Positions 2,426-29,031 of a stretch of 64,000 nt of DNA are shown here, one piece after another (the first letter of the stretch is position 1; each line of letters starts with the position of its first letter). The stretch spans positions 10,619-74,618 of the forward strand of contig DATCBU010000117.1 of NCBI GenBank assembly GCA_036511675.1, in the 5' to 3' direction. The position numbers and the translations under genes are program-made. The notes under the pieces were generated by a model that was not told the origin of the DNA, made no database searches, and saw only the letters and a list, made by a program, of their open reading frames with translations. The stretch comes from Acidimicrobiales bacterium. GTDB taxonomy: Bacteria > Actinomycetota > Acidimicrobiia > Acidimicrobiales > UBA8190.

Positions 2426-3795
2426 GCACCGAGCCGGCACCGGGGACGGCGAAGGGGGCCCGCCGGCGGGCGAAGGGCGGGCCCGATGTGGAGCCGGTCC
2501 GGTCCGGTGCGCCGAGCGCCCCGCCCTCGGCCGCCACCCCGGCTGCGGAGGGTGCGTACGACCCCTGGGCGACGGTGCTCGAACGCATCGACGACGCCGC
2601 TGAGCTGGCCGGCCTCGACCCGGACGTCCATCGCCTGCTGCGACTGCCCGACCGGGTGCTCGAGGTGGCGGTGCCCATCCGGATGGACGACGGCCACGTC
2701 GAGGTGTTCCTGGGTTGGCGGATCCACCACAACACGGCCCGGGGCCCCGCCAAAGGGGGGATCCGCTTCCACCCGAACCTCCATGCTGCCGAGGTGGCGG
2801 CGCTGGCAGCGGACATGACGCTCAAGACCGCCGTGGTCGACATCCCGTTCGGAGGCGGCAAGGGTGGGGTGCGTTGTGATCCCCGCCAACTGTCGATCGG
2901 TGAGCTCGAGCGGCTCACCCGTCGCTACACGTTTGAGATCGCCCCGCTCTTGGGGCCCGACCGGGACATCCCCGCCCCCGACGTCAACACCGACGAGAGG
3001 GTCATGGCCTGGCTCCTCGACACGCTCGACATGCTCCAAGGCCGCTCCCTCCCCGAAGTCGTGACGGGCAAGCCGCTGGCGGTAGGGGGGATGCGGTTGC
3101 ACACGGGGGCCACGGCCTCGGGCGTCGTGCGCTGCGTGCGGGCCGTCTTCGCCGCCCTCGACATGCCGGTCGCCGGCGCCCGGGCCATCGTCCAGGGGTT
3201 CGGCAAAGTCGGGGGGCCGCTCGCCTTCCTCCTGTCGTCGGCGGGCATGCGGGTGGTGGCGGTCGCCGACGTGGGTGGGGCGGTGCACAATCCCGGCGGC
3301 CTCGACCTGAGCCTGTTGTCCGACCACGTCTCGCGCAGCGGCTCGGTGGCGGGTTTCGCCGGTGGCGAGGAGATCCGGTCCTCCGACCTCTGGGCGGTGG
3401 AGGCCGAATTGGCGGTCCCCGCCGCGCTGGAGGGAGCCATCGACGAGTCGGCCGCCCGGGACCTGCGTGTCCGAGTGCTGGTCGAGGCGGCCAACGGTCC
3501 GACCACCCCGGCCGGCGACCGCGTCCTGGCCGAACGGGGCATCGTCGTCGTCCCTGACATCCTGGCCAACGCCGGGGGTGTGACGGCGTCGTACTTCGAG
3601 TGGGCCCAGTCCCGCCAGGGGTATGCCTGGGACGAGGAGCTCGTGGCCACCCGCCTGGCCCGCACCATGGACGATGCCTTCGCCGACGTGTGGGCCCGGT
3701 CCCGGGACCTCGGGGTCACCATGCGACGCGCCGCCGGCGTGGTGGCGGTCGATCGCCTGGCGGCGGCGATCAAGGCCCGGGGACTGTTTCCCTGA
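2422..3795 (+). CDS. gdh: Glu/Leu/Phe/Val dehydrogenase (glutamate dehydrogenase-like)
   Basis: Contains GGIRFHP...LAADMTLKTAVVDIPFGGGKGGV and a Rossmann segment VQGFGKVGG. The TTG start overlaps the upstream stop. The real start may lie further 3' because the N-terminus is Ala/Pro-rich. Confidence 0.85.
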   Translation: MSTEPAPGTAKGARRRAKGGPDVEPVRSGAPSAPPSAATPAAEGAYDPWATVLERIDDAAELAGLDPDVHRLLRLPDRVLEVAVPIRMDDGHVEVFLGWRIHHNTARGPAKGGIRFHPNLHAAEVAALAADMTLKTAVVDIPFGGGKGGVRCDPRQLSIGELERLTRRYTFEIAPLLGPDRDIPAPDVNTDERVMAWLLDTLDMLQGRSLPEVVTGKPLAVGGMRLHTGATASGVVRCVRAVFAALDMPVAGARAIVQGFGKVGGPLAFLLSSAGMRVVAVADVGGAVHNPGGLDLSLLSDHVSRSGSVAGFAGGEEIRSSDLWAVEAELAVPAALEGAIDESAARDLRVRVLVEAANGPTTPAGDRVLAERGIVVVPDILANAGGVTASYFEWAQSRQGYAWDEELVATRLARTMDDAFADVWARSRDLGVTMRRAAGVVAVDRLAAAIKARGLFP

Positions 3796-3844
3796 GCGGT
3801 CTCATTCGCTGAGCCGTCTCATTCTCTCAGCGGTCTCACCGAAT
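3794..3844. repeat. 17-nt tandem repeat x3 in convergent intergenic spacer
   Basis: The units are gagcggtctcattcgct, gagccgtctcattctct and cagcggtctcaccgaat. The first unit overlaps the last two bases of the gdh stop codon (TGA 3793-3795). Confidence 0.9.
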
Positions 3845-3852
3845 GAGCAGCT

Positions 3853-4458
3853 TTACCAGCCCCGGTCGACCCATTCCTGGAGTCGGGGCCGCTCGGTTCC
3901 GATAGTGGTGTCGTCGCCGTGTCCGGGGAGCACGACGGTGTCGGGCCCGAAGGGGGAGAACAGCCGGCCCTCGATGGACGTGATGATGGTGGGGAAGTCT
4001 CCCCCGGGGAACTTGGTGTTCCCCGGGCCGCCCGGGAAGAGCGTGTCACCGCTGAAGAGAAGGGGTGTCCCCTCCACCGTGAAGCACATCGACCCCGGCG
4101 TGTGCCCGGGAGTGGCGATCGTCCGCAGCTGCATGTCCCCGACCTCGATGATGGTGTCGTCCTCGAGGATCAGGTCGTAGGACGGGAGCATCTCGGCGTC
4201 GGCGGCGGTGACCGACACCTCGTATCCCGCCTCGCGCACCGCCGGCACCGCCTGGATGTGGTCCCAGTGGCCGTGGGTCTCCAGGACCTTGCGGACCCCG
4301 AGGTCACGGCACATCTGGAGCAGCATCTCGTGTTCGTTGGCGGCATCGATGAGCACGGCGTCGCCCGTCGCCTTGCTGCGGATGACGTAGACGTTGTTGT
4401 CCATGGGGCCGACGACGACCTTGTGGACCTCGACCAGGCTGTCTTGGTAGTGGGGCAT
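3853..4458 (-). CDS. MBL-fold metallo-hydrolase (glyoxalase II-like)
   Basis: 201 aa with the THGHWDH metal motif, plus TPGHTPGS and a terminal GH..D. Confidence 0.85.
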   Translation of the reverse strand: MPHYQDSLVEVHKVVVGPMDNNVYVIRSKATGDAVLIDAANEHEMLLQMCRDLGVRKVLETHGHWDHIQAVPAVREAGYEVSVTAADAEMLPSYDLILEDDTIIEVGDMQLRTIATPGHTPGSMCFTVEGTPLLFSGDTLFPGGPGNTKFPGGDFPTIITSIEGRLFSPFGPDTVVLPGHGDDTTIGTERPRLQEWVDRGW

Positions 4459-18709: not shown

Positions 18710-19201
18710 GTGGATCAAGAGGACGCCTTCGAGGCGGCCATGCTCGAGCACGGGACCCGCCTGGCGCGGATGGCCTTCTATCTGTGCGGAGACCGGACCC
18801 GGGCCGAGGATCTCGTGGCTGAGGCGTTCGCCGGTGCGTGGCCCAAATGGTCGGCCGGACGGATCGAGGCCCTGGCCCCGTACCTCCGCCGGGCCGTGGT
18901 CAATCTGGCGGCCAAGGAGCATCGGCACCGGCTGGTGATGTTCCGCCACGACGAACGCGCCCCGTCGCCGGCCCCGGCACCGGGGGCCGACGAGAACCTG
19001 TGGGCCCGGGTCGACCTGGGTCGCGTGTTGGCCGCTCTGGCGCCCGCCCAACGGGTGGTCGTGGTCCTGCGCTACGTCGAGGACATGACCGAGTCGGACA
19101 TGGCCGCCTTCCTCGGGGTGTCTCCCGGCACGGTCAAGTCCCGGTTGGCCCGGGCCCTCGACGCCATGCGGGCGCGACTCGAAGGAGGCGACGATGCCTG
19201 A
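18710..19201 (+). CDS. ECF (SigE-type) sigma factor
   Basis: Region 2 reads RAEDLVAEAFAGAWPKW. Region 4 reads VVVLRYVEDMTESDMAAFLGVSPGTVKSRLARAL. The start is uncertain (GTG at 18710 or ATG at 18740). Confidence 0.8.
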   Translation: MDQEDAFEAAMLEHGTRLARMAFYLCGDRTRAEDLVAEAFAGAWPKWSAGRIEALAPYLRRAVVNLAAKEHRHRLVMFRHDERAPSPAPAPGADENLWARVDLGRVLAALAPAQRVVVVLRYVEDMTESDMAAFLGVSPGTVKSRLARALDAMRARLEGGDDA

Positions 19202-20378
19202 GCGCGACGACATCGAGGCGCAGCTCCGGCAGGAGCTGCTGCGTCAGGCGCCCGAATTCGAACTGGGGACGTCCCTGCCCGGCCGGGTGTCGGCGTTGGT
19301 GCGGCGGAGCCACCGTGTGCGGATGGCCGTGGTCATCGGGGCCGCGGCTGTCGTGGTGGCGGCGGTCGCCGTCCCACTCTCCTCACTGCGCTCCGAGCCC
19401 TTGGGTCGCAAGATCACTCCCGCCACCACACCCACCACGCCCACCACCTCGACGACCCCGTCCACGCCGACCTCGACGACGACGCCCCCGAACGTGGCGC
19501 TGGCGCCCTTCTCCTGTGCTTCGCTCGATCTCTGGACCACGCCGACAGGGACCCCGGTGTCCTCCACGGTCACCCTGGGCCTGGTGTCGGCCACCCTTAC
19601 CGGGACCAGGGCGACGACTCCGGGTGACGACCCGGCGTTATCGAATCCGGTGCTGTCGGTGGGTCAGGCGGTGCTGTCGGGGCCGGCCGTGACCCAACCC
19701 TTCCCGAGCGGCTTCGGCTTCCACATGTCGGTGGCCCCCCCCGCCCAGGCCGACGCCGTGATCCCCTGGTCCATCGCCCCGGCCTCGCCCCAGGGGTCGA
19801 CGTCGCCGCCCAACTCCGACGCGCTGTGCCTGGCCGAGTTCCCCGGCTTCAGTCTGCCCACGGTCCTTCTGGGTCTGGACACGGGCGGCGCGCACTGCTG
19901 CACCGTGGTCCGCGCCATCGCGATCTCGTCGTCCGGGCACGGTCCCGTCGTCGACGACGAGGTGGGCAACCCCGCTGCCTCGCTGGCGGCGGATGGCCAC
20001 AGCGCCGTGATCGTCAGCGCCGACAATGCCTTTGCCTATGCCTTCGGCTCCTATGCTGCCTCGGGCCTCCCCCTCAAGGTGCTGCAATTCGGGGCGGGAG
20101 GTTTCACCGATGTGACGCGCCAGCACCTCGACTTGGTGGCCAAGGACGCCGCCACATGGTGGACGACGTTCAATGCCGACCCGGGGAACGGGCTCGGCGT
20201 GTTGGCGGCCTGGGTGGCCGACGAATGCGTCGTCGGGCAGGCAACGAGCGCGTGGTCGACGGTGGGCCAGTTGCAGATGCAGGGAAAGCTCGGCGGTCCC
20301 GTCGGCTGGCCCACCGGCACCGCCTACGTGTCGGCGCTCAAGACTTTCCTCGCGCAGCACGGGTACTGCCCGGCGTGA
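19194..20378 (+). CDS. membrane-anchored protein, putative anti-sigma partner
   Basis: The start overlaps the sigma stop by 8 nt (ATGCCTGA). It has a ~40-aa cytoplasmic N-terminus, one TM helix (MAVVIGAAAVVVAAVAV), a Thr/Pro linker and a ~270-aa extracytoplasmic domain I do not recognise. Confidence 0.55.
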   Translation: MPERDDIEAQLRQELLRQAPEFELGTSLPGRVSALVRRSHRVRMAVVIGAAAVVVAAVAVPLSSLRSEPLGRKITPATTPTTPTTSTTPSTPTSTTTPPNVALAPFSCASLDLWTTPTGTPVSSTVTLGLVSATLTGTRATTPGDDPALSNPVLSVGQAVLSGPAVTQPFPSGFGFHMSVAPPAQADAVIPWSIAPASPQGSTSPPNSDALCLAEFPGFSLPTVLLGLDTGGAHCCTVVRAIAISSSGHGPVVDDEVGNPAASLAADGHSAVIVSADNAFAYAFGSYAASGLPLKVLQFGAGGFTDVTRQHLDLVAKDAATWWTTFNADPGNGLGVLAAWVADECVVGQATSAWSTVGQLQMQGKLGGPVGWPTGTAYVSALKTFLAQHGYCPA

Positions 20379-21287: not shown

Positions 21288-23873
21288 GTGACCGGACAGG
21301 CCCTCGCCGTCGCCTGGTACCGGTTCCGGGCCACCTTCGGTCACCGTCGGGGCGGGTACCTGGCCATCGTCCTACTGGTGGGGTTGGTGGGTGGCGTGGC
21401 TATGGGTGCGCTGGCTGCGGCCCGACGCACCCAGTCGTCCTTCGCCACCTACTTGGCCAGCACCAATCCGTCCAATTTCGACGTGTCGGTCTTCGGCGGA
21501 TTCAACAATTCCAGCGGCGCCGTGTACTCCGCCGCGGCCACGAAGGAGATCGCCGCGCTGCCCGGCGTCAGGCACGTCGAGGCGGGCATCGTGCTCACCG
21601 CCGCCCCCCTGCTCCGAAACGGCGCTCCCCGTCTCGACTCCGCCGTCCTGCAGAACACCTTCACCGTGGCCAGCGTCGACGGTCTCTATTTCGACCTCGA
21701 CCGCTTGGCGGTCACCGAAGGACGCATGGCGAACCCGGACCGGCCCGACGAGATCGTCATGACCGCGGTGGCCGCCCATCTGCTCGGGTTCCACGTCGGT
21801 GAGGTGATCCCCTACGGGTTCTACACCCAGCACCAGCAAGGTCTGCCGGCCTTCGGCACGCCCAAGGTCCCTCCTCACCGACGGATCGATGAAAAATTGG
21901 TGGGGCTGGTCCAGGTGAGCAATGCCCTCGTGCAGGACGACATCGACCGGCTCCCCACCTTCATCTTCTTCACGCCCGCGTTGGGCAAGGAGGTCGTGGC
22001 CGACGGAGGCCACGTCGAGGGCGGGGCCATCACCTACGGGTTGCAGATCGACGGCGGGAACGCCGGCGTGGCCAAGGTGGAGCGGGAATTCTCCACCCTT
22101 GTCCCGAGGCGCACGACGGCTGCCTTCCACGCCATCTCGCCGGTCGAGGCCAAGGTGGACCGGACCGTCAAGCCGCTCGCCATCGCCCTGGGCGTGTTCG
22201 GCATGGTGGCCGCTCTGGCCGCGTTGCTCATCGGTGTCCAGATCATCTCGCGCCAGCTGCGCGCCGCCGACGAGGACCTGGGCGTGCTGCGCGCTCTGGG
22301 GGCGACTCCCGGGACCACCATCGCCGACGGACTGCTCGGCATGGTGGGGGCCATCACGGTGGGAGCGCTGCTGGCGGTGCTGGTGGCCGTCGCCCTGTCA
22401 CCGCTGTCTCCGCTGGGCCCGGTTCGGTCCGTGTATCCGGGCTCGGCCATCGCCTTCGACTGGACTGTGCTCGGCAGCGGGCTCGCCGCGCTGATCGTCG
22501 GGCTCGGCGCCTTGGCGTTGGCGCTCGCCTATCGCAGCGCACCGCACCGGGTGGCGCAACGCCAGGGGGATCCGTCCCCACGTGGCTCGAGGGCCGTGCG
22601 CGTCGTGGCGTCGACTGGTCTTCCTCCGTCTGCGGCCGTGGGGGTGCGGTTCGCCCTCGAGTCCGGTCGGGGCCGCACCGCCGTCCCGGTGCGATCGGCC
22701 TTGCTGGGTGCGGTGCTGGCGGTGGCCCTCGTCGTGGCCACGCTGACCTTCGGGAGCGGTTTGCAGGCGCTTGTCTCGCATCCCTCGCTGTACGGATGGA
22801 ACTGGACCTACATGCTCAATCCGACCAACACCGTCCCCTCCCAGGCCGAGGCCCTGCTCGCCCACGACCACGACGTCGCGACGTGGGCCGGGTACGACTA
22901 CAACGATGCCGAGATCAACGGCCAGACCGTTCCCTTCCTCTTTCAGGACTCGCAGTCCGACACGAGCGATCCGATCGCCCCCCCGATCCTGAGCGGGCAC
23001 GGCGTCGAGGACAAGGACCAGATCGTGCTGGGCGCGGCGACGATGCAGCAGCTGCACACGCGTCTCGGCGGCACGGTGGTGGTGAGCTTCGGCCTCCCCA
23101 AAGATGCACCCTTCTACCTGCCACCCACCCCTGTCGTGGTGGTGGGGACGGCCACCATGCCCGCCGTGGGGTTCTCCAGCGTCATCTCCGACCACACCTC
23201 CATGGGGACCGGGGCGCTGGTCAGCAGGGGCGTCGAGCCCGCCGCCTTCCAGAAGGCCCAGCTCAGCGGCGACCCCACGCTCAACGGTCCGGACCTGATC
23301 TTCGTGCGGCTCCGGGGCGATGTTCCTCGTGCGGTGGGCCTGGCCGGTCTGCGACGCATCGCCGCCTCAGTCACCCGCGACCTCGCCGCGGTGCCCAACG
23401 GGGGTGGCCAGGGCAACAGTGTCACGGCGGTGGGGGTGCAGCGCCCGGCCGAGATCGTCAACTACCGCAGCACCGGCGCCACGCCCACACTGCTGGCCAC
23501 TGCACTCGCCGCCGGGGCGGTGATCGCGCTGGGTCTCACCCTGGCGGCCTCGGTGCGCCGCAGACGACGCGATCTGGCCTTGTTGAAGACACTGGGCTTC
23601 ACGCAGCGGCAGTTGGCGGCCGCCCTGGCCTGGCAGGCGTCGGTGGCGGCGGTCATCGGGGTCGTCGTGGGGGTGCCCGTCGGCATCGCGCTCGGGCGCT
23701 GGTTGTGGGATCTGTTCGCCCGCCAGATCTACGCCGTGCCCGACGCCACCGTGCCCGTCGTGTCGGTGGTCGTCGTGGCCCTCGGTGCCTTGGTGCTCGC
23801 CAACATCGTGGCTGCGTTGCCGGGGCGCAGTGCGGCCCGTACGCCCACGGCGGTGCTGTTGCGCTCCGAGTAA
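21288..23873 (+). CDS. ABC-transporter permease with two FtsX domains (MacB-like)
   Basis: About 860 aa with two 4-TM FtsX modules separated by large extracytoplasmic domains. The C-terminus reads RRRRRDLALLKTLGFTQRQL...LPGRSAARTPTAVLLRSE. It is a paralogue of 40344-42749. Confidence 0.8.
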   Translation: MTGQALAVAWYRFRATFGHRRGGYLAIVLLVGLVGGVAMGALAAARRTQSSFATYLASTNPSNFDVSVFGGFNNSSGAVYSAAATKEIAALPGVRHVEAGIVLTAAPLLRNGAPRLDSAVLQNTFTVASVDGLYFDLDRLAVTEGRMANPDRPDEIVMTAVAAHLLGFHVGEVIPYGFYTQHQQGLPAFGTPKVPPHRRIDEKLVGLVQVSNALVQDDIDRLPTFIFFTPALGKEVVADGGHVEGGAITYGLQIDGGNAGVAKVEREFSTLVPRRTTAAFHAISPVEAKVDRTVKPLAIALGVFGMVAALAALLIGVQIISRQLRAADEDLGVLRALGATPGTTIADGLLGMVGAITVGALLAVLVAVALSPLSPLGPVRSVYPGSAIAFDWTVLGSGLAALIVGLGALALALAYRSAPHRVAQRQGDPSPRGSRAVRVVASTGLPPSAAVGVRFALESGRGRTAVPVRSALLGAVLAVALVVATLTFGSGLQALVSHPSLYGWNWTYMLNPTNTVPSQAEALLAHDHDVATWAGYDYNDAEINGQTVPFLFQDSQSDTSDPIAPPILSGHGVEDKDQIVLGAATMQQLHTRLGGTVVVSFGLPKDAPFYLPPTPVVVVGTATMPAVGFSSVISDHTSMGTGALVSRGVEPAAFQKAQLSGDPTLNGPDLIFVRLRGDVPRAVGLAGLRRIAASVTRDLAAVPNGGGQGNSVTAVGVQRPAEIVNYRSTGATPTLLATALAAGAVIALGLTLAASVRRRRRDLALLKTLGFTQRQLAAALAWQASVAAVIGVVVGVPVGIALGRWLWDLFARQIYAVPDATVPVVSVVVVALGALVLANIVAALPGRSAARTPTAVLLRSE

Positions 23874-23898
23874 CGCCGGCGGGTTCAGGTGACGGGCG

Positions 23899-24540
23899 TC
23901 ACGCGACCCGGATCTCGCCCGAGGGTGAGGCCAGCAGGAGTGCGGTGGGCCCGGTGTCGCCACCGACGCGCACGTCGACGCCCTGGGGCGGATCTGCACC
24001 CAGCCAGCCCGACAGGGCCACGGGGTCGGGCACGTGCAGCTCGAGGCGGGCGAACCCGGTGGCTCCACAACGGTGGACGACGTCACCGAGGCGTGCCGGG
24101 TGGAGCTGGGCGTCGTCCCAGACCATGAAGGCGCACCGCCACGGCGCTTCCCATGACGCGTCCACCGCCACGCAGCGCCAGCGCACGGTGGTCCCATCGC
24201 CGAGGATGCGCTGGCGGTGCTCGACGGGGAGCCCGACACGCGCCGCGGTGGCGTCGATGTCCCCGGGCGTCACCTCCATCGACCAGCGGGCCACACCGGG
24301 GCCGCGCCTCGCCAAGGCGGCCAGGACCGGGCGTCCCTGGGGCGAGGACCGGGCCTCGCCCTCGTCGACGACGGCGAGAAGCTCGAGATACTGCGTGCCG
24401 AGGGGCACGATGAGATTGGCCGTGCCCCGCCCCGGATGCCGGCCGCCGTCGAGGACGGTGAGACCGAGCGCCTCGGTCCGCCGGCGGGCCGAGGCGAGGT
24501 CGGTGACGAGGACGATGGCCTGGACGAGCCGGTCAGCCAT
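23899..24540 (-). CDS. VOC/glyoxalase-like domain protein
   Basis: 213 aa. The N-terminus IVLVTDLASARRRTEALGLTVLDGGRHPGRGTANLIVPLGTQYLELL fits a glyoxalase-like fold. Confidence 0.6.
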   Translation of the reverse strand: MADRLVQAIVLVTDLASARRRTEALGLTVLDGGRHPGRGTANLIVPLGTQYLELLAVVDEGEARSSPQGRPVLAALARRGPGVARWSMEVTPGDIDATAARVGLPVEHRQRILGDGTTVRWRCVAVDASWEAPWRCAFMVWDDAQLHPARLGDVVHRCGATGFARLELHVPDPVALSGWLGADPPQGVDVRVGGDTGPTALLLASPSGEIRVA

Positions 24541-24593
24541 GACGGGGAGCGGTCCCGGGCCCGGCGCGCCGTGGGGTGCGAGATGATGGCGTC

Positions 24594-24917
24594 ATGACGC
24601 CGGCCAAGACGGCCAATTCCCGTTGGTCCTTGTGGTCGGAGGACTCGGTGCTGTCGATCGGGTCCAAGGGCTCGTTCATGTCTATCGGCTCCATCGGCTC
24701 GGCGTGCTCGATCGGGTCGATCGGCTCGTTCCTGTCGGCCTTCTCCATCGGTTCGGCCGGTTCACTGGGCTCGGTGCTCTCGGCGCGGTCGCGGTGGTCG
24801 GCGATGTCCTTCGGCGCCGCCAGGGCGATCCTCGCCGGAGGGCCCAACTCGGACCAGGATCGGTCGGAGCGGGGTCAGTCGGTCCAGGGATCGGCGGAGT
24901 CGGCGTCGATCTCGTAG
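24594..24917 (+). CDS. small Ser-triplet-repeat protein (22 consecutive X-X-Ser units), function unknown
   Basis: Every third codon across 24612-24809 is a TCN Ser codon, with g/c/t/a all seen at the wobble position. The start could be ATG 24594 or GTG 24576. The 3' end overlaps the convergent aceE tail by 43 nt. The mirror ORF on the minus strand is the alternative reading (see findings). Confidence 0.45.
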   Translation: MTPAKTANSRWSLWSEDSVLSIGSKGSFMSIGSIGSACSIGSIGSFLSAFSIGSAGSLGSVLSARSRWSAMSFGAARAILAGGPNSDQDRSERGQSVQGSAESASIS

Positions 24918-27577
24918 CGGCCGATGGCCTCGGCCACCTCGTCGCGCTTGGCGTCACCGGTGTCGGCCAGCTCGCTGAGCACGGCCACCACCAGGTGGGC
25001 GGCGTCGACCTCGAAAAAGCGGCGCAAGGCGGCCCGGGTGTCGGAGCGTCCGAAGCCGTCGGTCCCCAGTGAGACGAAGGGCCGGGGCACCCACCGGGCC
25101 ACTTGGTCGGGGACGGCCCGCAGGTAGTCGGTCACCGCCACCACCGGTCCGGTCCCGTCCGCCAGGGCACGGGTGACGTAGGGGACGGCGCGCTCGGCGT
25201 GGGGATGGAGGCGGTTGGCTCGTTCCACCGACAGGGCGTCCTCGCGCAGCTCGGTGTACGACGTCACCGACCAGGCATCGGCCGAGACACCCCAGTCCGC
25301 CGCCAGCATGGCGCGCGCCTCCATGGCGACCTGCCACATGGGCCCCGAGAAGAGCAGGGTGGCGCGCCGGTTGGTGCCGTCGGGCACCTCGGCGGGCTCG
25401 GCGAAGCGGTACATGCCGCGCAGGACTCCGGCCCGCACCACGTCGCCGGCGTCGCCGGTGGGGAGGGGGGGCATGGGGTAGTTCTCGTTGTAGAGGGTGA
25501 GGTACCAGAAGCGGTCCTCGGGCTCGGGCCCCATGATCCTGGTGACGGCGTCGTGCATGATGACGCCGATCTCATAGGCGAAGGCGGGGTCGTAGATGTG
25601 CGCCGCGGGGTTCACCGAGGCGAGCAGGGGCGAGTGGCCGTCGTCGTGCTGGAGGCCTTCTCCTTGCAAGGTGGTGCGGCCCGCCGTACACCCGGCCAGG
25701 ATGCCGCGGCCGCGGATGTCACCGAGGAGCCAGGCCAGGTCACCGATGCGCTGGAACCCGAACATGGAATAGAAGAGATAGATGGGCAGCATGGGCCGGC
25801 CCCAGGTGGCGTAGGACGTGGCCAGGGCGATGAACGTGGCCATGGCACCGGCCTCGGTGATGCCTTCTTGGAGGATCTGGCCCTTGCGGTCCTCGGCGTA
25901 GCGGAGGATGAGGTCGGAGTCGACGGGGGTGTAGCGCTGGCCCTCGGGGGCGTAGATCTTGGACTCGGCGATGAGGGGCTCGAGGCCGAAGGTGCGGGCC
26001 TCGTCGGGGACGATGGGGGCGACGTAGCGCCCCAGGGCGGGGTCGCGCGCCAGGTTGCGCAGCAGCCGGGCGAAGGCCATGGTCGTGGACGCGGCCTGGG
26101 CGCCCGACCCGGCGAACATGTCCGAGAAGGCCTTGTCGTCGGGGAGGGCATAGTGCGTGACGGCCCGCACCACACGCGACGGCAGGGGGCCGGCCAGGAC
26201 CTTGCGGCGCCCCGACAGGTACTCGTGGGCGGGGGACCCCTCGGGGGGGCGGTAGTAGGGGGGTTGTTCGGCGTCGAGGGCCTCGTCGGGGATCTCCTCT
26301 TGGAGATAGAGGCGGTCGCGCAGGGCGAGCAGCTGGGCCTTGGTCATCTTCTTGATCTGATGGGTGGCGTTGCGCGCTTCGATCTCGGGGCCCAGCGTCC
26401 AGCCCTTGACGGTCTTGGCCAGGATGACGGTGGGCTGGCCCACCTGTTCGGTGGCGAGCTTGTAGGCGGCGTAGAGCTTGCGGTAGTCGTGCCCGCCGCG
26501 CGGCAGGGCCTGGAGATCGGCGTCGGAGAGGTGCTCGACCAGCCGGCGCAGTCGGGGGTCGGGGCCGAAGAAGTGCTCCCGGATGTAGGCGCCGGACTCG
26601 GTGGCGTACTTCTGGAATTCGCCGTCGGGGGTGGTGTTCATCTTGTCGAGGAGCACGCCGTCGATGTCGCGCGCCAGCAGCTCGTCCCACTTGGATCCCC
26701 AGATGACCTTGATGACGTTCCAGCCCGCGCCCCGGAAGGTGGCCTCGGCCTCCTGGATGACCTTGCCGTTGCCGCGCACGGGGCCGTCGAGGCGTTGCAG
26801 GTTGCAGTTGACGACGAAGATCAGGTTGTCCAGGTGCTCGCGTCCCGCCACGCCCAGGGCACCGATGGACTCGACCTCGTCGAGCTCACCGTCGCCGAGG
26901 AAGGCCCAGATGCGACTGGCGGAGGTGTCGACGATCTCGCGCTGGAGGAGATAGCGCGCCGCGTGGGCCTGGTAGATGGCACACAGGCCACCGAGGCCCA
27001 TCGACACGGTGGGGTACTCCCAGAATTCGGGGAGGAGGCGGGGGTGGGGGTAGCTGGGCAGGCCCCGGCCCGAGACCTCCTGGCGGAAATGGTCGAGCTG
27101 GTCCTCGGTGAGACGGCCCTCGACGAAGGCGCGGGCGTAGATGCCGGGTGAGCCGTGGCCCTGGAAGTAGACGAGGTCCCCGAACCCGCCGTCGGACTTG
27201 CCCCGGAAGAAATGGTTGAACCCCACCTCGTAGAGCGAGGCGGAGCTGGCATAGGTGGCCAGATGGCCCCCGATGCCCTCGCTGCGGTAGTTGGCCCGGC
27301 TCACCATGGCCGCCGCGTTCCACCGGATGTAGGCGCGGATGCGCCTCTCGACGTACTCGTCGCCGGGGAACCAGGGCTCCTGGTCCTGGGGGATGGTGTT
27401 GACGTACGGGGTGGACACCGTGGCGGGGAAGTCGACCTGCATGGCGCGGGCCCGCTCGAGCAGCTTCATGAGCAGGAAGCGGGCCCGGGGGCGTCCCTCG
27501 GCGTCGACGACGGCGTCGAAGGAGTCGATCCACTCCGCCGTCTCCTGGGGGTCGATGTCGGGAAGTTGATGCGACAT
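24875..27577 (-). CDS. aceE: pyruvate dehydrogenase E1 component (homodimeric AceE type)
   Basis: About 900 aa starting [19 protein letters not shown]. It is collinear with AceE throughout, including the ThDP-binding segment [12 protein letters not shown]...[14 protein letters not shown]. Confidence 0.9.
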
Positions 27578-27785
27578 TCCGTCGAAGAGCACTGCCCCAT
27601 GCTACGGGCGGCCTCCTGGCAAGAGACCGACACTGCGAACCACGACGGGGGGCCTCGGTGTGATCGGGGGCGGATCGGTGAAGGTGCCCTCATCGGTGGA
27701 TCGCCGGCCTCGTCTGCCTCACCAGCCTCATGAAGCTCTGTGTCATCTCAGTGAGACTGATACACCCTCATGGCACACTGAATTC

Positions 27786-29031
27786 GTGCTCGTTTCGCTG
27801 AAGACCGTGCGCCAGGACATCGCCCGGGAGCTGGCGGGGGCCGATCCCGACCGGGTCACCGCCGCTCAGGCCGCCGAGCTCGTGACGCTGTTCGCCGACA
27901 TCGAGCGACTGGGCTCGGCGGGCAAGGTCCTCTTCTCCCACCGCGCCGCGCAGTCCACGAGATGGCGCGACGAGGGCCACCGGTCCGCGGCGTCGTGGAT
28001 GGCCGAGACCACTGGCACGGGAGTGGGTGAGGCTCTCAACGCGTTGGAGACGTCATCGGCGCTGGTGTCACTTCCCGAGACTTCTGACGCGCTGCGCAGA
28101 GGAGAGCTGTCGGGCACCCAGCTCAAGATCATCGCCGGTGCCGCGGCGCAGAACCCGGGGACCGAGGGCGCATTGCTGAAGGCGGCCGCCGATCACAGCA
28201 TCAAGGGGCTCAGAGATCGCGCCGCGCAGGTCCGGGCGCGGGCGAGCTCGGCCGCGCAGGAGAAGGCGCGGTATTCGGCGGTGCACGCCGCGAGGTACGT
28301 GCGCCACTGGGCCGACCCCGACGGGGCCTTCCGCCTCGATGCCAAGCTCACCCCCGACGCGGGGGCCACACTCCTCTCCGCGCTCGAGCAGGAGGCCGAC
28401 GTCCGGTTCAAGGCGGCGCGCCAGGCCGACGTGCACGAACCTCCCGGCGCCCATCTGGCCGACGCCCTGGTGGCACTGGTGGCGGGGGAGCCAGCAGCCC
28501 CGGTGTCGGGCCGCACCGGTTCATCGGCGACCGGCAATCCCCGGGCGACGGTGGTCATCCGCGTGGACGCCAAGGCACTGCGCCGGGGGTATGCCAAGGC
28601 GGGCGAGACGTGTGCCATCCGGGGTGGGCCCGGTCCCGGTGGCCGCGGTGCACCGGCAGCTCTCTGATGCATTCGTGAAGATCGTGGTCCTGGACGGCAC
28701 CGACGTCACTACGGTGTGCCACGTGGGGCGCAGTGTCTCCCGACACATCCAGACGGCCCTGGAAGAACGCGACCCGGTGTGTGTGGTCCCGAAGTGCGAG
28801 GTCGCCCACGGGCTCGAGGACCATCACTGGGACGTGCCCTATGCCGAGTGCGGGACGAGCACCCTGGCCGGCTTGGCCCGGATCTGCTCCTGGCACCACG
28901 GCCTGGCCACCTACGAAGGATTGGTGCTGGGCGGTGGGGCGGGGGCCTGGGAGTGGAGCGAACCCCCGGGCGGGGCGGCCTTCGAAACGGGCCCGCCGGG
29001 TTCCGGGACCGGGTTCCGGGATACGGGCTGA
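27786..29031 (+). pseudogene. DUF222/HNH endonuclease (13E12-repeat-like), frameshifted
   Basis: The N-terminal DUF222-like part is in frame 0 up to ...GETCAI (28619). The continuation GVGPVPVAAVHRQLSDAFVK...HHWDVPYAECGTSTLAGLARICSWHH (HNH) is in frame +1 from 28621. Frame 0 terminates at 28667. Confidence 0.7.

Follow-up and report, generated by a model that had tools for sequence, protein, structure and literature searches.

Strict three-residue repeats are familiar from collagen, with its Gly-X-Y triplets, from the snow-flea antifreeze protein, and from the GGX motifs of spider silk, and a strict 3-residue period also resembles the Omega-X-X motifs of radical-SAM cyclophane precursors. HXS antiphage systems contain HxsA, in which Ser recurs with a period of three. 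These systems show the gene order hxsD-B-C-A in 99.6% of cases, and both a signal peptide and a peptidoglycan-binding domain are found in HxsA (PMC13128918). Leaderless small actinobacterial proteins, expressed without a Shine-Dalgarno sequence (Shell et al. 2015, PMC4633059), offer a precedent of another kind, a class defined by expression architecture, which is not a protein family and is silent on function.

The locus compared here with these systems lies in a 64,000-nucleotide stretch of an Acidimicrobiales genome, referred to as the window. On its plus strand, 22 X-X-Ser triplets follow one another in unbroken succession at 24612-24809, reading ANS RWS LWS EDS VLS IGS KGS FMS IGS IGS ACS IGS IGS FLS AFS IGS AGS LGS VLS ARS RWS AMS, and all 22 Ser codons are of the TCN type (TCG 14, TCC 6, TCT 1, TCA 1). 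The same triplets and codon type had been reported by an earlier sequence-only reading, which was also accurate about the flanking genes and the mirror open reading frame on the minus strand (24533-24847). Upstream lies a divergent Glyoxalase_3 (VOC) gene (23899-24540, minus strand; Pfam PF13468, E 2.4e-29), outside the feature itself, and downstream the convergent pyruvate dehydrogenase E1 gene aceE (24875-27592, minus strand; Pfam PDH_E1_M, E 3e-78). Across six frames of the 64-kb window and ten common residues, the runner-up period-3 run has a length of 8, composed of Arg in off-frames. The 66 residues of the array comprise 33% Ser and 15% Gly with no His; Asn, Gln, His, Thr, and Pro are all missing from the nonapeptide stretch, and between Lys24 and Arg63 only I/V/L/F/A/M/C/G/S occur, leaving about 38 residues without charge.

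The proposed product, encoded at 24594-24917 on the plus strand, has 107 aa plus a stop and consists of an 8-residue N-terminus, the array of about 66 residues with Ser at every third position, and a short basic tail. The array opens with a WSxWS-like N-cap, continues through about five nonapeptides of the form [VFA]LS-IGS-xGS, and closes with an Arg/Trp C-cap (SARSRWSxMS). The N-cap SRWSLWSEDS (24618-24647, plus strand) contains the literal WSxWS motif, and its columns in the profile of 83 homologues are W 63/83, S 83/83, L 72/83, W 71/83, S 83/83, E 57/83, and D 64/83. The five nonapeptides VLSIGSKGS, FMSIGSIGS, ACSIGSIGS, FLSAFSIGS, and AGSLGSVLS (24648-24782, plus strand) are delineated by tandem repeats of 27 and 54 nt, by the column profile, and by DCA. 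They are followed by the C-cap ARS RWS AMS (24783-24809, plus strand), where profile positions 55 and 57 are most often R and the consensus reads ...SARSRWSxMSxRS. Most members contain 20-23 triplets, length variants differ by entire 9-residue units, and many columns are at least 90% conserved, including L at 10 and 19, I at 12 and 21, and G at 22, 25, and 34.

Immediately after the array, FGAARAILAGG (24810-24842, plus strand) represents the family motif x-R-x-x-[AG]-[VI]-[LM], which emerges from the tails of 86 loci and from the alignment consensus. The rest of the C-terminal tail (24843-24917, plus strand) is not conserved, and its final 43 nt (24875-24917) run into the 3' end of aceE, which lies on the opposite strand. 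The tail sequence ...GQSxQGSAESxSIS is confined to the aceE-syntenic loci L007, L008, L014, L021, and L037, and the best explanation for it is that the conserved C-terminus of aceE is being read in antisense. Several further features were considered and discarded. Fused domains in long members (up to 384 aa) are not real and look like mis-called starts or frame errors, while apparent second array copies at L014 and L040 are extra X-X-Ser runs belonging to unrelated SRS and ASPLSG repeats. A hairpin joining the N- and C-caps through a Trp/Arg ladder was likewise dropped, since the Trp residues of the two caps tend only slightly to occur together (odds ratio 1.7; p 0.03, with no correction for phylogeny).

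Two strands could in principle encode a protein here, and the sequence-only reading had considered that the minus-strand frame suited the gene packing better. That frame, with its acidic D/E-P-x reading, is open over 104 codons, lies on the same strand as both neighbours, and has a GC3 of 0.86, the last because its wobble positions are shared with the plus frame. Alignment of homologues, suggested earlier as a way to choose the frame, favours the plus strand: pN/pS is 0.40 in the plus frame and 0.74 in the antisense frame, and amino-acid identity is 73% against 51%, figures in which plus-frame conservation is inflated, the loci having been collected by plus-frame peptide patterns. In-frame stops occur in 0/83 homologues on the plus strand and in 5/83 on the antisense strand. 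By the genetic code, the conservative I/V/L/F exchanges of the plus frame become I/T/S/N exchanges on the minus strand, and plus-strand AGY Ser codons, which account for 45 of 1530 periodic Ser codons across homologues, would read Leu there instead of Asp/Glu. When periodic Ser residues are substituted, the replacement is nearly always Cys or Ala. The homologues conserve the plus reading, where the earlier reading had allowed that they might keep the acidic one or none. The minus frame is judged non-coding, an antisense shadow of the kind that shared wobble positions ordinarily produce opposite a high-GC gene.

A non-coding DNA repeat was the other way of dispensing with a plus-strand gene. 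Column entropy at codon positions 1, 2, and 3 of the plus frame is 0.72, 0.49, and 1.25, and because the third position is the most variable, the region is not a purely DNA-level repeat. TRF detects only diverged repeats in the array DNA, with periods of 27 nt (73% matches) and 54 nt (80% matches); repeats only 73-80% alike argue against repetition at the DNA level, and on these grounds a recent microsatellite origin was ruled out. Homologues retain both the plus-frame reading and the periodicity, whose loss in relatives would have pointed to a microsatellite artefact, and Rfam has no match at 23800-25300. The inference drawn from wobble variety alone, that selection acts on the amino acids of the plus frame, is borne out by codon-position entropy, pN/pS, Ser codon usage, and start layout. 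Judged by sequence comparison, 24594-24917 is a real gene that encodes a protein and evolves under purifying selection, and it is very improbable that the real gene is the minus-strand frame or that the region is a non-coding repeat; the conserved promoter and start layout also sits on the plus strand.

This layout bears on the start codon. The sequence-only reading had placed the frame at 24576-24917; frame and end hold, and the likely start, from the upstream sequence, is ATG 24594 (107 aa), not GTG 24576 (113 aa). A -10-like hexamer, GATGAT (24582-24587, plus strand; -12 to -7), ends 7 nt before the A of this ATG. The pattern nAnnnT ending at -6 to -8 before an in-frame start is present at 63 of 83 homologous loci, against 10.4 +/- 2.7 for random start codons, and positions outside the selection criterion are conserved as well: of 50 loci, 38 carry A at -8 and 34 carry G at -14. 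At the sequence level, the locus has the features of a leaderless mRNA, namely a start codon placed where the TSS would be expected, a -10 ending about 7 nt upstream, and no Shine-Dalgarno sequence, which is the layout of the leaderless actinobacterial class; the product size of about 85-110 aa is shared with that class too. Transcription would then proceed from a housekeeping-type -10 box and give a leaderless message, usually monocistronic, with the ATG at its 5' end. A simple promoter and terminator scan found nothing, because its E. coli-type -35/-10 rule is unfit for this organism.

Homologues of the protein are numerous. Searches returned 257 of them, all names shown among the 120 matches listed being "hypothetical protein", the genome scan found at least 586 loci, and the profile search yielded 1262 clusters at 50% identity. 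The 80 loci that were retained all belong to Actinomycetota, as does every taxonomically identified locus, and the spread covers Acidimicrobiia, Thermoleophilia, and Actinomycetes, including Streptomyces, Kitasatospora, Cellulomonas, and Sinomonas, with 60-70% identity kept across classes within the phylum. Among 2.9 million viral contigs only two weak matches were detected, and tblastn against plasmids and phages gave no match, in a search whose low-complexity filter may mask the query. The exact proteins of the window frame and of eight Streptomyces, Kitasatospora, Cellulomonas, and Sinomonas orthologues are absent from a 15-billion-protein collection, and these copies may be unannotated.

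Scans of the products of both strands against Pfam, PADLOC, and PHROGs gave no match above threshold, and the sole NCBIfam match was sub-threshold, to HxsA4. A profile search of the PDB returned only artificial (TGS)n linkers and low-complexity segments, including a nucleoporin region. These results agree with the earlier statement that the protein contains no known domain. Literature searches by characteristic sequence strings and by concept found nothing relevant to the family, which is uncatalogued, with more than 1000 clusters at 50% identity lying outside Pfam, NCBIfam, PADLOC, PHROGs, and solved structures.

The HxsA4 match raises the prospect that the periodic Ser residues are substrates for post-translational modification, as the sequence-only reading had also suggested; the enzymes would be encoded at other genomic sites. 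Candidate reactions would be dehydration, cyclodehydration, glycosylation, and crosslinking of the RiPP type (HxsA- or triceptide-like). The weak match to the His-Xaa-Ser repeat protein (E 9e-5), the resemblance of the 3-residue periodicity to cyclophane precursors, and the failure of AlphaFold2 to find a fold are consistent with such a precursor. However, the HxsA4 score is 23 bits against a cut-off of 55, the array lacks His, and the fixed gene order and HxsA domain content of HXS systems do not fit, while fixed length, caps, and compensatory covariation point to a folded unit.

Gene neighbourhoods lend the modification proposal no contextual support. The neighbours in the window are GNAT, FtsX/MacB, VOC, and aceE genes. 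When all frames within +/-5 kb were clustered, the most widespread neighbour cluster reached at most 13 of 86 loci, the commonest Pfam family at most 9 of 84 nearest neighbours, and only lineage-specific synteny was seen, such as aceE in Acidimicrobiales (86 loci, nearest upstream and downstream genes scanned against Pfam). No radical-SAM, YcaO, Lan, glycosyltransferase, or other maturase-type family recurs among the 166 nearest neighbours or within +/-5 kb at the 86 loci, Radical_SAM is missing from the 25 most frequent Pfam families of those 166 neighbours, and the clustering with maturases expected of a RiPP precursor was not found at the examined loci. Maturases may be encoded at a distance from the array; overall, a modified precursor is rated improbable. 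On this genomic evidence, the gene appears to stand alone, without a conserved neighbour.

Structure prediction for the 107-residue product, a check proposed with the earlier reading, gave no confident monomer fold. AlphaFold2 reached a pLDDT of 54.8 for the full protein with 114 sequences and 49.8 for the in-register core with 54 sequences. The program usually recognizes solenoids; here it draws a low-confidence helix at residues 48-86 (pLDDT <60), not a solenoid. Covariation gives a periodic signal. In DCA, separation 9 holds 16 of the 66 top couplings, corresponding to 28% of such pairs against a 3% baseline, separation 18 ranks second, and signal at i+4 and i+7 is absent. Side-chain size is anticorrelated at i/i+9, with opposite- versus same-direction double changes of 898:94, 748:108, and 655:120, and correlated at i/i+18 (628 to 229), these counts coming from sequence pairs that are not independent. 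In repeat proteins, couplings at the repeat period can reflect duplication, gene conversion, alignment register, or ancestry instead of contact. With respect to the solenoid class, the alignment shows couplings enriched at 9 and 18, size compensation, and conserved caps, and the AlphaFold2 model is not confident. Covariation and size compensation in the alignment point to a stacked, solenoid-like repeat; the solenoid or "ladder" idea of the sequence-only reading is compatible with the i+9 and i+18 covariation and is not predicted by AlphaFold2.

The long uncharged stretch invites a second interpretation, in which the protein is a small integral membrane protein and about 38 Ser/Gly-striped residues form one long TM alpha-helix or a helical hairpin, with helices packing through small residues and Trp/Arg caps at the membrane interface. 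The solely uncharged composition between Lys24 and Arg63, the W/R-rich caps flanking the array, the tolerance of Ser positions for Cys, and the fact that the residue 48-86 helix is the only element drawn by AlphaFold2 would suit it. So would a further, clear TM-like helix, located about 16 residues past the array and followed by basic residues, in 81 of 213 members (38%). The window copy has no such C-terminal hydrophobic helix and does not qualify as tail-anchored (maximum Kyte-Doolittle 1.45, 19-residue window). In the array itself, hydrophobicity stays under the usual thresholds, with a Kyte-Doolittle maximum of 1.45 over 19 residues and Hessa energies that add up to +3.8 to +5.1 kcal/mol for segments of 19-21 residues, and the array is not a classical transmembrane helix. 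Dominance of i+9 covariation without a helical i+4/i+7 signal, tolerance of 9-residue length changes (2.5 helical turns), and the pLDDT below 60 of the drawn helix also speak against an intramembrane array, which is considered unlikely.

Low pLDDT throughout, PDB matches confined to artificial (TGS)n linkers and a low-complexity part of a nucleoporin, and the Ser and Gly content of the array would also be expected of an intrinsically disordered, cohesive low-complexity region, acting as a flexible tether or a self-associating "sticker-spacer" sequence. Such a region would have to account for position-specific conservation, with many columns at or above 90%, for fixed length and conserved caps, and for unit-to-unit compensation of side-chain size. 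Identity of 60-70% across the classes of a phylum is rarely kept by disordered regions, and disorder is regarded as rather improbable.

The best explanation overall is a real plus-strand gene with a leaderless mRNA that encodes a stacked-repeat structural protein, an account held tentatively and at somewhat less than an even chance. Its structural component, that the array folds or assembles as a stacked repeat, solenoid- or beta-roll-like, with an 18-residue period, is given similarly guarded preference. The array would then act not as a linear peptide but as a stack with two nonapeptides per 18-residue turn, in which the aliphatic and aromatic residues of successive units would pack against one another in the interior, Gly would occupy the turns, Ser hydroxyls would form continuous ladders, and polar, aromatic caps would close the ends. 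Members with a C-terminal transmembrane helix might display this Ser-laddered rod at the membrane, the window copy being without an anchor. In this model, the role would most likely be structural or scaffolding, possibly at the membrane, instead of enzymatic. As a separate observation on the solenoid, a surface of Ser and Gly only, with 38 uncharged positions, would be unusual for a soluble protein and counts against it.

A Ser at every third position over about 66 residues, combined with 9- and 18-residue units that show size compensation, is an unusual sequence rule, and AlphaFold2 does not fold the array, which makes it a candidate for either a new repeat fold or an obligate oligomer. A bolder proposal, possible but doubtful, is that the family has an undescribed architecture: a self-contained "serine-ladder" solenoid with caps, in which about seven nonapeptides wind in turns of 18 residues, restricted to Actinomycetota, expressed from leaderless mRNAs, and often membrane-tethered. 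If it were true, the protein would work through its rows of hydroxyls, which might bind a polymer, lipid head groups, or further copies in a filament. Several carriers are named strains, apparently cultured, among them Kitasatospora indigofera JCM 4646, Streptomyces fuscichromogenes CGMCC 4.7110, Cellulomonas cellasea, and Sinomonas mesophila, which makes tests of expression, localization, and knockout feasible. The locus also illustrates a difficulty of gene calling at high GC: a short leaderless gene has to compete with its antisense shadow frame and may be overlooked or assigned to the opposite strand.

Compared with the described systems, HxsA shares the Ser period of three, and its model is the only curated one that scores at all. 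NF038313 reaches 23.3 bits against its cut-off of 55, there are 0 His in the 66 array residues, and His is uncommon at triplet first positions in the family profile. HxsB/HxsC radical-SAM and HxsD neighbours were not found, and HxsA has 5 repeats where the window protein has 22. Only 8 residues precede the array (typically about 3-17 in homologues), so there is no room for a signal peptide, and no Pfam domain, and hence no peptidoglycan-binding one, is recognized.

Collagen-like, polyglycine-II, and PPII proteins have in common with the array a strict 3-residue period and a small residue at a fixed position. They differ in that the invariant residue here is Ser rather than Gly, Pro is absent where collagen is rich in it, each triplet has one aliphatic position, Gly stands mid-triplet in about half of the triplets, and a 9/18-residue superperiod is superimposed; the collagen-like fold once suggested for this protein finds no support. 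A left-handed beta-helix, with its hexapeptide [LIV]-[GAED]-X2-[STAV]-X, is not indicated either, Pfam Hexapep giving no match (E<=1) and AlphaFold2 building none. The N-cap holds a literal W-S-L-W-S, reminiscent of WSXWS in class I cytokine receptors and WxxW in thrombospondin repeats. Both N-cap Trp residues are present in 71/83 homologues, and Arg and Trp recur at 3-residue spacing in the C-cap, a resemblance of motif only, with no fibronectin-III or TSR domain.

The RTX nonapeptide beta-roll (GGxGxDxUx) differs in several points: the units here contain no Asp calcium ligand, no HemolysinCabind match appears at Pfam E<=1, Ser stands where RTX units bury a hydrophobic residue and is itself flanked by hydrophobics, there is no secretion signal, and AlphaFold2 produces no beta-roll. 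What the two share is tandem nonapeptides, fixed Gly residues, and variation by whole units; two units would give one 18-residue turn, as in RTX, and the i+9/i+18 covariation fits this geometry.

The plus-strand frame open from 24576 reads MRDDGVMTPAKTANSRWSLWSEDSVLSIGSKGSFMSIGSIGSACSIGSIGSFLSAFSIGSAGSLGSVLSARSRWSAMSFGAARAILAGG..., in which every third residue from 24612 to 24809 is serine, giving 22 consecutive triplets with serine codons TCG (14), TCC (6), TCT (1) and TCA (1). The frame reading and codon count bear out the sequence-only reading, which had described 22 X-X-Ser triplets with TCN codons. Across six frames of the 64-kb window (G+C 70%), the next-longest period-3 run among ten common residues is eight, of Arg in the off-frames, and the serine run is far beyond chance. 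A local DNA microsatellite had been raised as a possible artefact; however, the only repeats reported by Tandem Repeats Finder are diverged ones, with periods of 27 nt (73% matches) and 54 nt (80% matches), so the array is no fresh microsatellite, and the triplet run is confirmed as no artefact. The small gene is flanked by two minus-strand neighbours, a VOC gene (Glyoxalase_3, 23899-24540) and aceE for pyruvate dehydrogenase E1 (PDH E1, 24875-27592).

A protein search with the plus-strand product, a check proposed from the sequence alone, returned 257 homologues sharing the consensus SRWSLWSEDS-xLSIGSKGS-xLSIGSVGS-xLSIGSIGS-FxSAFSIGS-...-SARSRWSxMSxRS, and among the 120 listed all source names were 'hypothetical protein'. 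When one genome per species was scanned, at least 600 stretches matched, and at least 586 of them were confirmed as relatives. All 80 retained loci are from Actinomycetota, covering Acidimicrobiia, Thermoleophilia (Solirubrobacterales), Streptomyces, Kitasatospora, Cellulomonas, Sinomonas, Streptosporangiaceae, Nocardioidaceae and one Mycobacterium MAG. Profile searching against 1.84 billion representative proteins gave 1262 clusters at E<=1e-3, of which 631 reach E<=1e-10; almost all are 84-230 aa long, and no real fused domains were found in longer family members. The family is thus conserved over several Actinomycetota classes, and its sequence rule is unusual. In agreement with the earlier remark that no known domain was recognised, Pfam, PADLOC and PHROGs returned no match and NCBIfam only a sub-threshold one to HxsA4 (23 bits; cut-off 55), which places the family outside every curated family searched. 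No relative was found in the PDB and no mention in literature searched by sequence string and by concept, while 2.9 million viral contigs yielded only two weak matches. Exact look-up in a 15-billion-protein collection found neither the 107-aa nor the 113-aa form of the window ORF, and likewise none of the orthologues predicted in eight named Streptomyces, Kitasatospora, Cellulomonas and Sinomonas genomes; annotation may often miss the gene or place its start elsewhere.

The coding strand had been left uncertain between the plus frame and a mirror antisense ORF (24533-24847, minus). GC3 (0.89 for the plus frame, 0.86 for the antisense ORF) is of no use for this choice because the two have third codon positions in common, and homologues were therefore used. 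In 83 cores aligned in register (82 genomic loci and the window's own), column entropy is 0.72, 0.49 and 1.25 bits at codon positions 1, 2 and 3. In the same cores, pN/pS is 0.40 for the plus frame against 0.74 for the wobble-sharing antisense frame, in-frame stops occur in 0/83 against 5/83, and amino-acid identity is 73% against 51%, the plus-frame identity being inflated by retrieval of the loci with plus-frame peptide patterns. Stop codons, AGY codons and promoter evidence are independent of that bias. The periodic serines are replaced almost solely by Cys (23) or Ala (19), and 45 of 1530 codons at these positions are AGC or AGT. Going from TCN to AGY or back requires two or more nucleotide changes, and on the opposite strand it would replace Asp/Glu with Leu, yet AGY occurs; selection therefore acts on serine, as the varied wobble bases had suggested. 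The small gene is, with high confidence, real and encoded on the plus strand, and it is very improbable that the region is instead truly the antisense ORF or a non-coding repeat.

Most homologues carry an ATG or GTG about 3-17 codons ahead of the first Trp, most commonly 10, with a -10-like hexamer directly in front of it. At 63 of 83 loci an in-frame start follows an nAnnnT that ends at -6 to -8 (exactly -7 in 49 of these), against a chance level of 10.4 +/- 2.7 (maximum 17) in 200 resamplings of random start codons from the same loci. Among 50 such sites tabulated by position, conservation extends to A at -8 (38/50) and to G at -14 (34/50), neither having been a selection criterion; this pattern fits an extended -10 box of the housekeeping type. 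Such an arrangement is the layout of a leaderless mRNA, from which we infer transcription and translation. Leaderless transcripts make up almost one quarter of the total in mycobacteria, where a 5'-terminal ATG or GTG is both required and enough for translation (PMC4633059). The window's own hexamer, GATGAT (24582-24587, plus), precedes the ATG at 24594 (plus), which opens a 107-aa product. A longer upstream motif, GTGCGAGATGATGG(N4-5)ATG (24570-24596), extends past the hexamer, is near-identical in the closest Acidimicrobiales relatives (loci L001, L007, L008, L009, L011 and L021) and might include a regulator site. The VOC start (24540, minus) diverges from the small-gene start with just 53 bp between them, so either the VOC gene is leaderless too or its promoter lies within or very near the small gene. 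The downstream neighbour is convergent at 56 of 84 loci, which suggests that the gene is usually monocistronic.

Clustering of all ORFs within 5 kb on either side of 86 loci placed the commonest neighbour cluster at no more than 13 of them. The nearest genes share a Pfam family in at most 5/82 loci upstream (FtsX) and 9/84 downstream (PDH E1, an Acidimicrobiales synteny block that includes the window and L001), and on this evidence the small gene appears to stand alone. The suggestion that the serine array is a modification substrate gained nothing here, as no radical-SAM, YcaO, lanthipeptide or glycosyltransferase family recurred in the 86 neighbourhoods or among the nearest genes scanned with Pfam. 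It is quite unlikely that enzymes encoded at another place in the genome modify the array. At two loci, L003 (4616-6040) and L005 (5126-6004), the upstream gene runs 4-40 nt into the family gene, a hint that the latter is occasionally coupled in an operon; the partners, an Rce1-like CPBP protease and a GHMP kinase respectively, are unlike each other and so were not treated as functional links.

Other genes in these neighbourhoods include a 335-aa ORF adjoining aceE (27660-28667, plus), at whose equivalent place the syntenic L001 carries DUF222 genes, and a 394-aa ORF (19194-20378, plus), which has a hydrophobic segment at its N-terminus and a linker rich in Pro and Thr (TTPTTPTTSTTPSTPTSTTTPP), both lacking a Pfam match at E<=0.001. 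At locus L014, 1.3 kb upstream of the family gene, a membrane-anchored protein (2794-4026, plus) terminates in a long Ser/Arg repeat (SRSSRSGRSSRSSRSSRS...) and is unrelated to the X-X-Ser family. At L040, ASPLSG is repeated five times in tandem at about 1481 (plus), sharing its frame with the ABC-type ATPase domain directly downstream.

Array length is tight, mostly 20-23 triplets; longer members are rarer, and their extra length comes in complete nonapeptides such as SIGSIGSAC. The repeating unit is [V/F/A]-L-S-I-G-S-x-G-S. Between Lys24 and Arg63 the window protein runs for 38 residues without charge, Asn, Gln, His, Thr or Pro, as does the family profile. With a maximum Kyte-Doolittle 19-residue window of 1.45 and a summed Hessa scale of +3.8 to +5.1 kcal/mol, the array falls short of the hydrophobicity of a classical transmembrane helix. 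The array is followed by a basic motif, x-R-x-x-[AG]-[VI]-[LM], and 81 of 213 family proteins carry a clearly hydrophobic helix about 16 residues past the array, then basic residues; the window copy lacks this helix. The last 43 nt of the small ORF (24875-24917) overlap the 3' end of convergent aceE, and the tail ...GQSxQGSAESxSIS is kept only in aceE-syntenic relatives (L007, L008, L014, L021, L037), so its conservation looks like a by-product of the conserved aceE C-terminus, of which it is the antisense reflection.

In a mean-field DCA of 238 unique in-register cores (Neff 123; separations of at least 3), 16 of the 66 strongest couplings fell at separation 9, or 28% of possible such pairs against about 3% overall, with separation 18 second, although repeat duplication can mimic contacts. 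Mean excess identity between neighbouring units is 0.008, so the separation-9 couplings are not due to identical residues in adjacent units. In sequence pairs with 70% or more identity at other positions, which are phylogenetically non-independent, double changes of opposite size direction outnumber those of like direction by 898:94 (positions 27/36), 748:108 (36/45) and 655:120 (39/48), whereas at positions 27/45, 18 apart, like-direction changes prevail by 628:229. Side-chain size thus alternates from unit to unit; together with the couplings, this would be expected if successive nonapeptides stack on one another with a structural period of 18 residues, in the manner of a beta-roll or flattened solenoid. 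The beta-solenoid 'ladder' proposed in the sequence-only reading is compatible with these i+9 and i+18 couplings but gains no support from AlphaFold2, whose monomer runs with two alignments (pLDDT 54.8, pTM 0.20; pLDDT 49.8, pTM 0.25) gave no confident model, the one element drawn being a low-confidence helix. A membrane helix or hairpin of the Ser/Gly-zipper kind is rather unlikely, the DCA couplings of the 238 cores holding no i+4 or i+7 signal, and a disordered cohesive segment is unlikely. Our tentative preference is for a capped stacked-repeat rod, with an aliphatic core, glycines at the turns and serine ladders on the surface, which in many members would be tethered to the membrane and may play a structural role.

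Among known systems, HxsA, the His-Xaa-Ser repeat protein of the HXS antiphage system, was rejected as an identity: the array contains no His, the score is 23 bits against 55, and there is no hxsB/C/D operon. HxsA also has a peptidoglycan-binding domain, none being detected in the small protein, and a signal peptide, for which the latter's 8-residue N-terminus is too short. A collagen-like protein, another early suggestion, was set aside because Ser takes the invariant position in place of Gly, and because Pro is absent. The N-terminal cap matches WSxWS as a motif resemblance only. RTX beta-roll repeats share the nonapeptide period, whereas the small protein is without their calcium-binding Asp. 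The protein is best described as a new family in the broad class of tandem-repeat small proteins.
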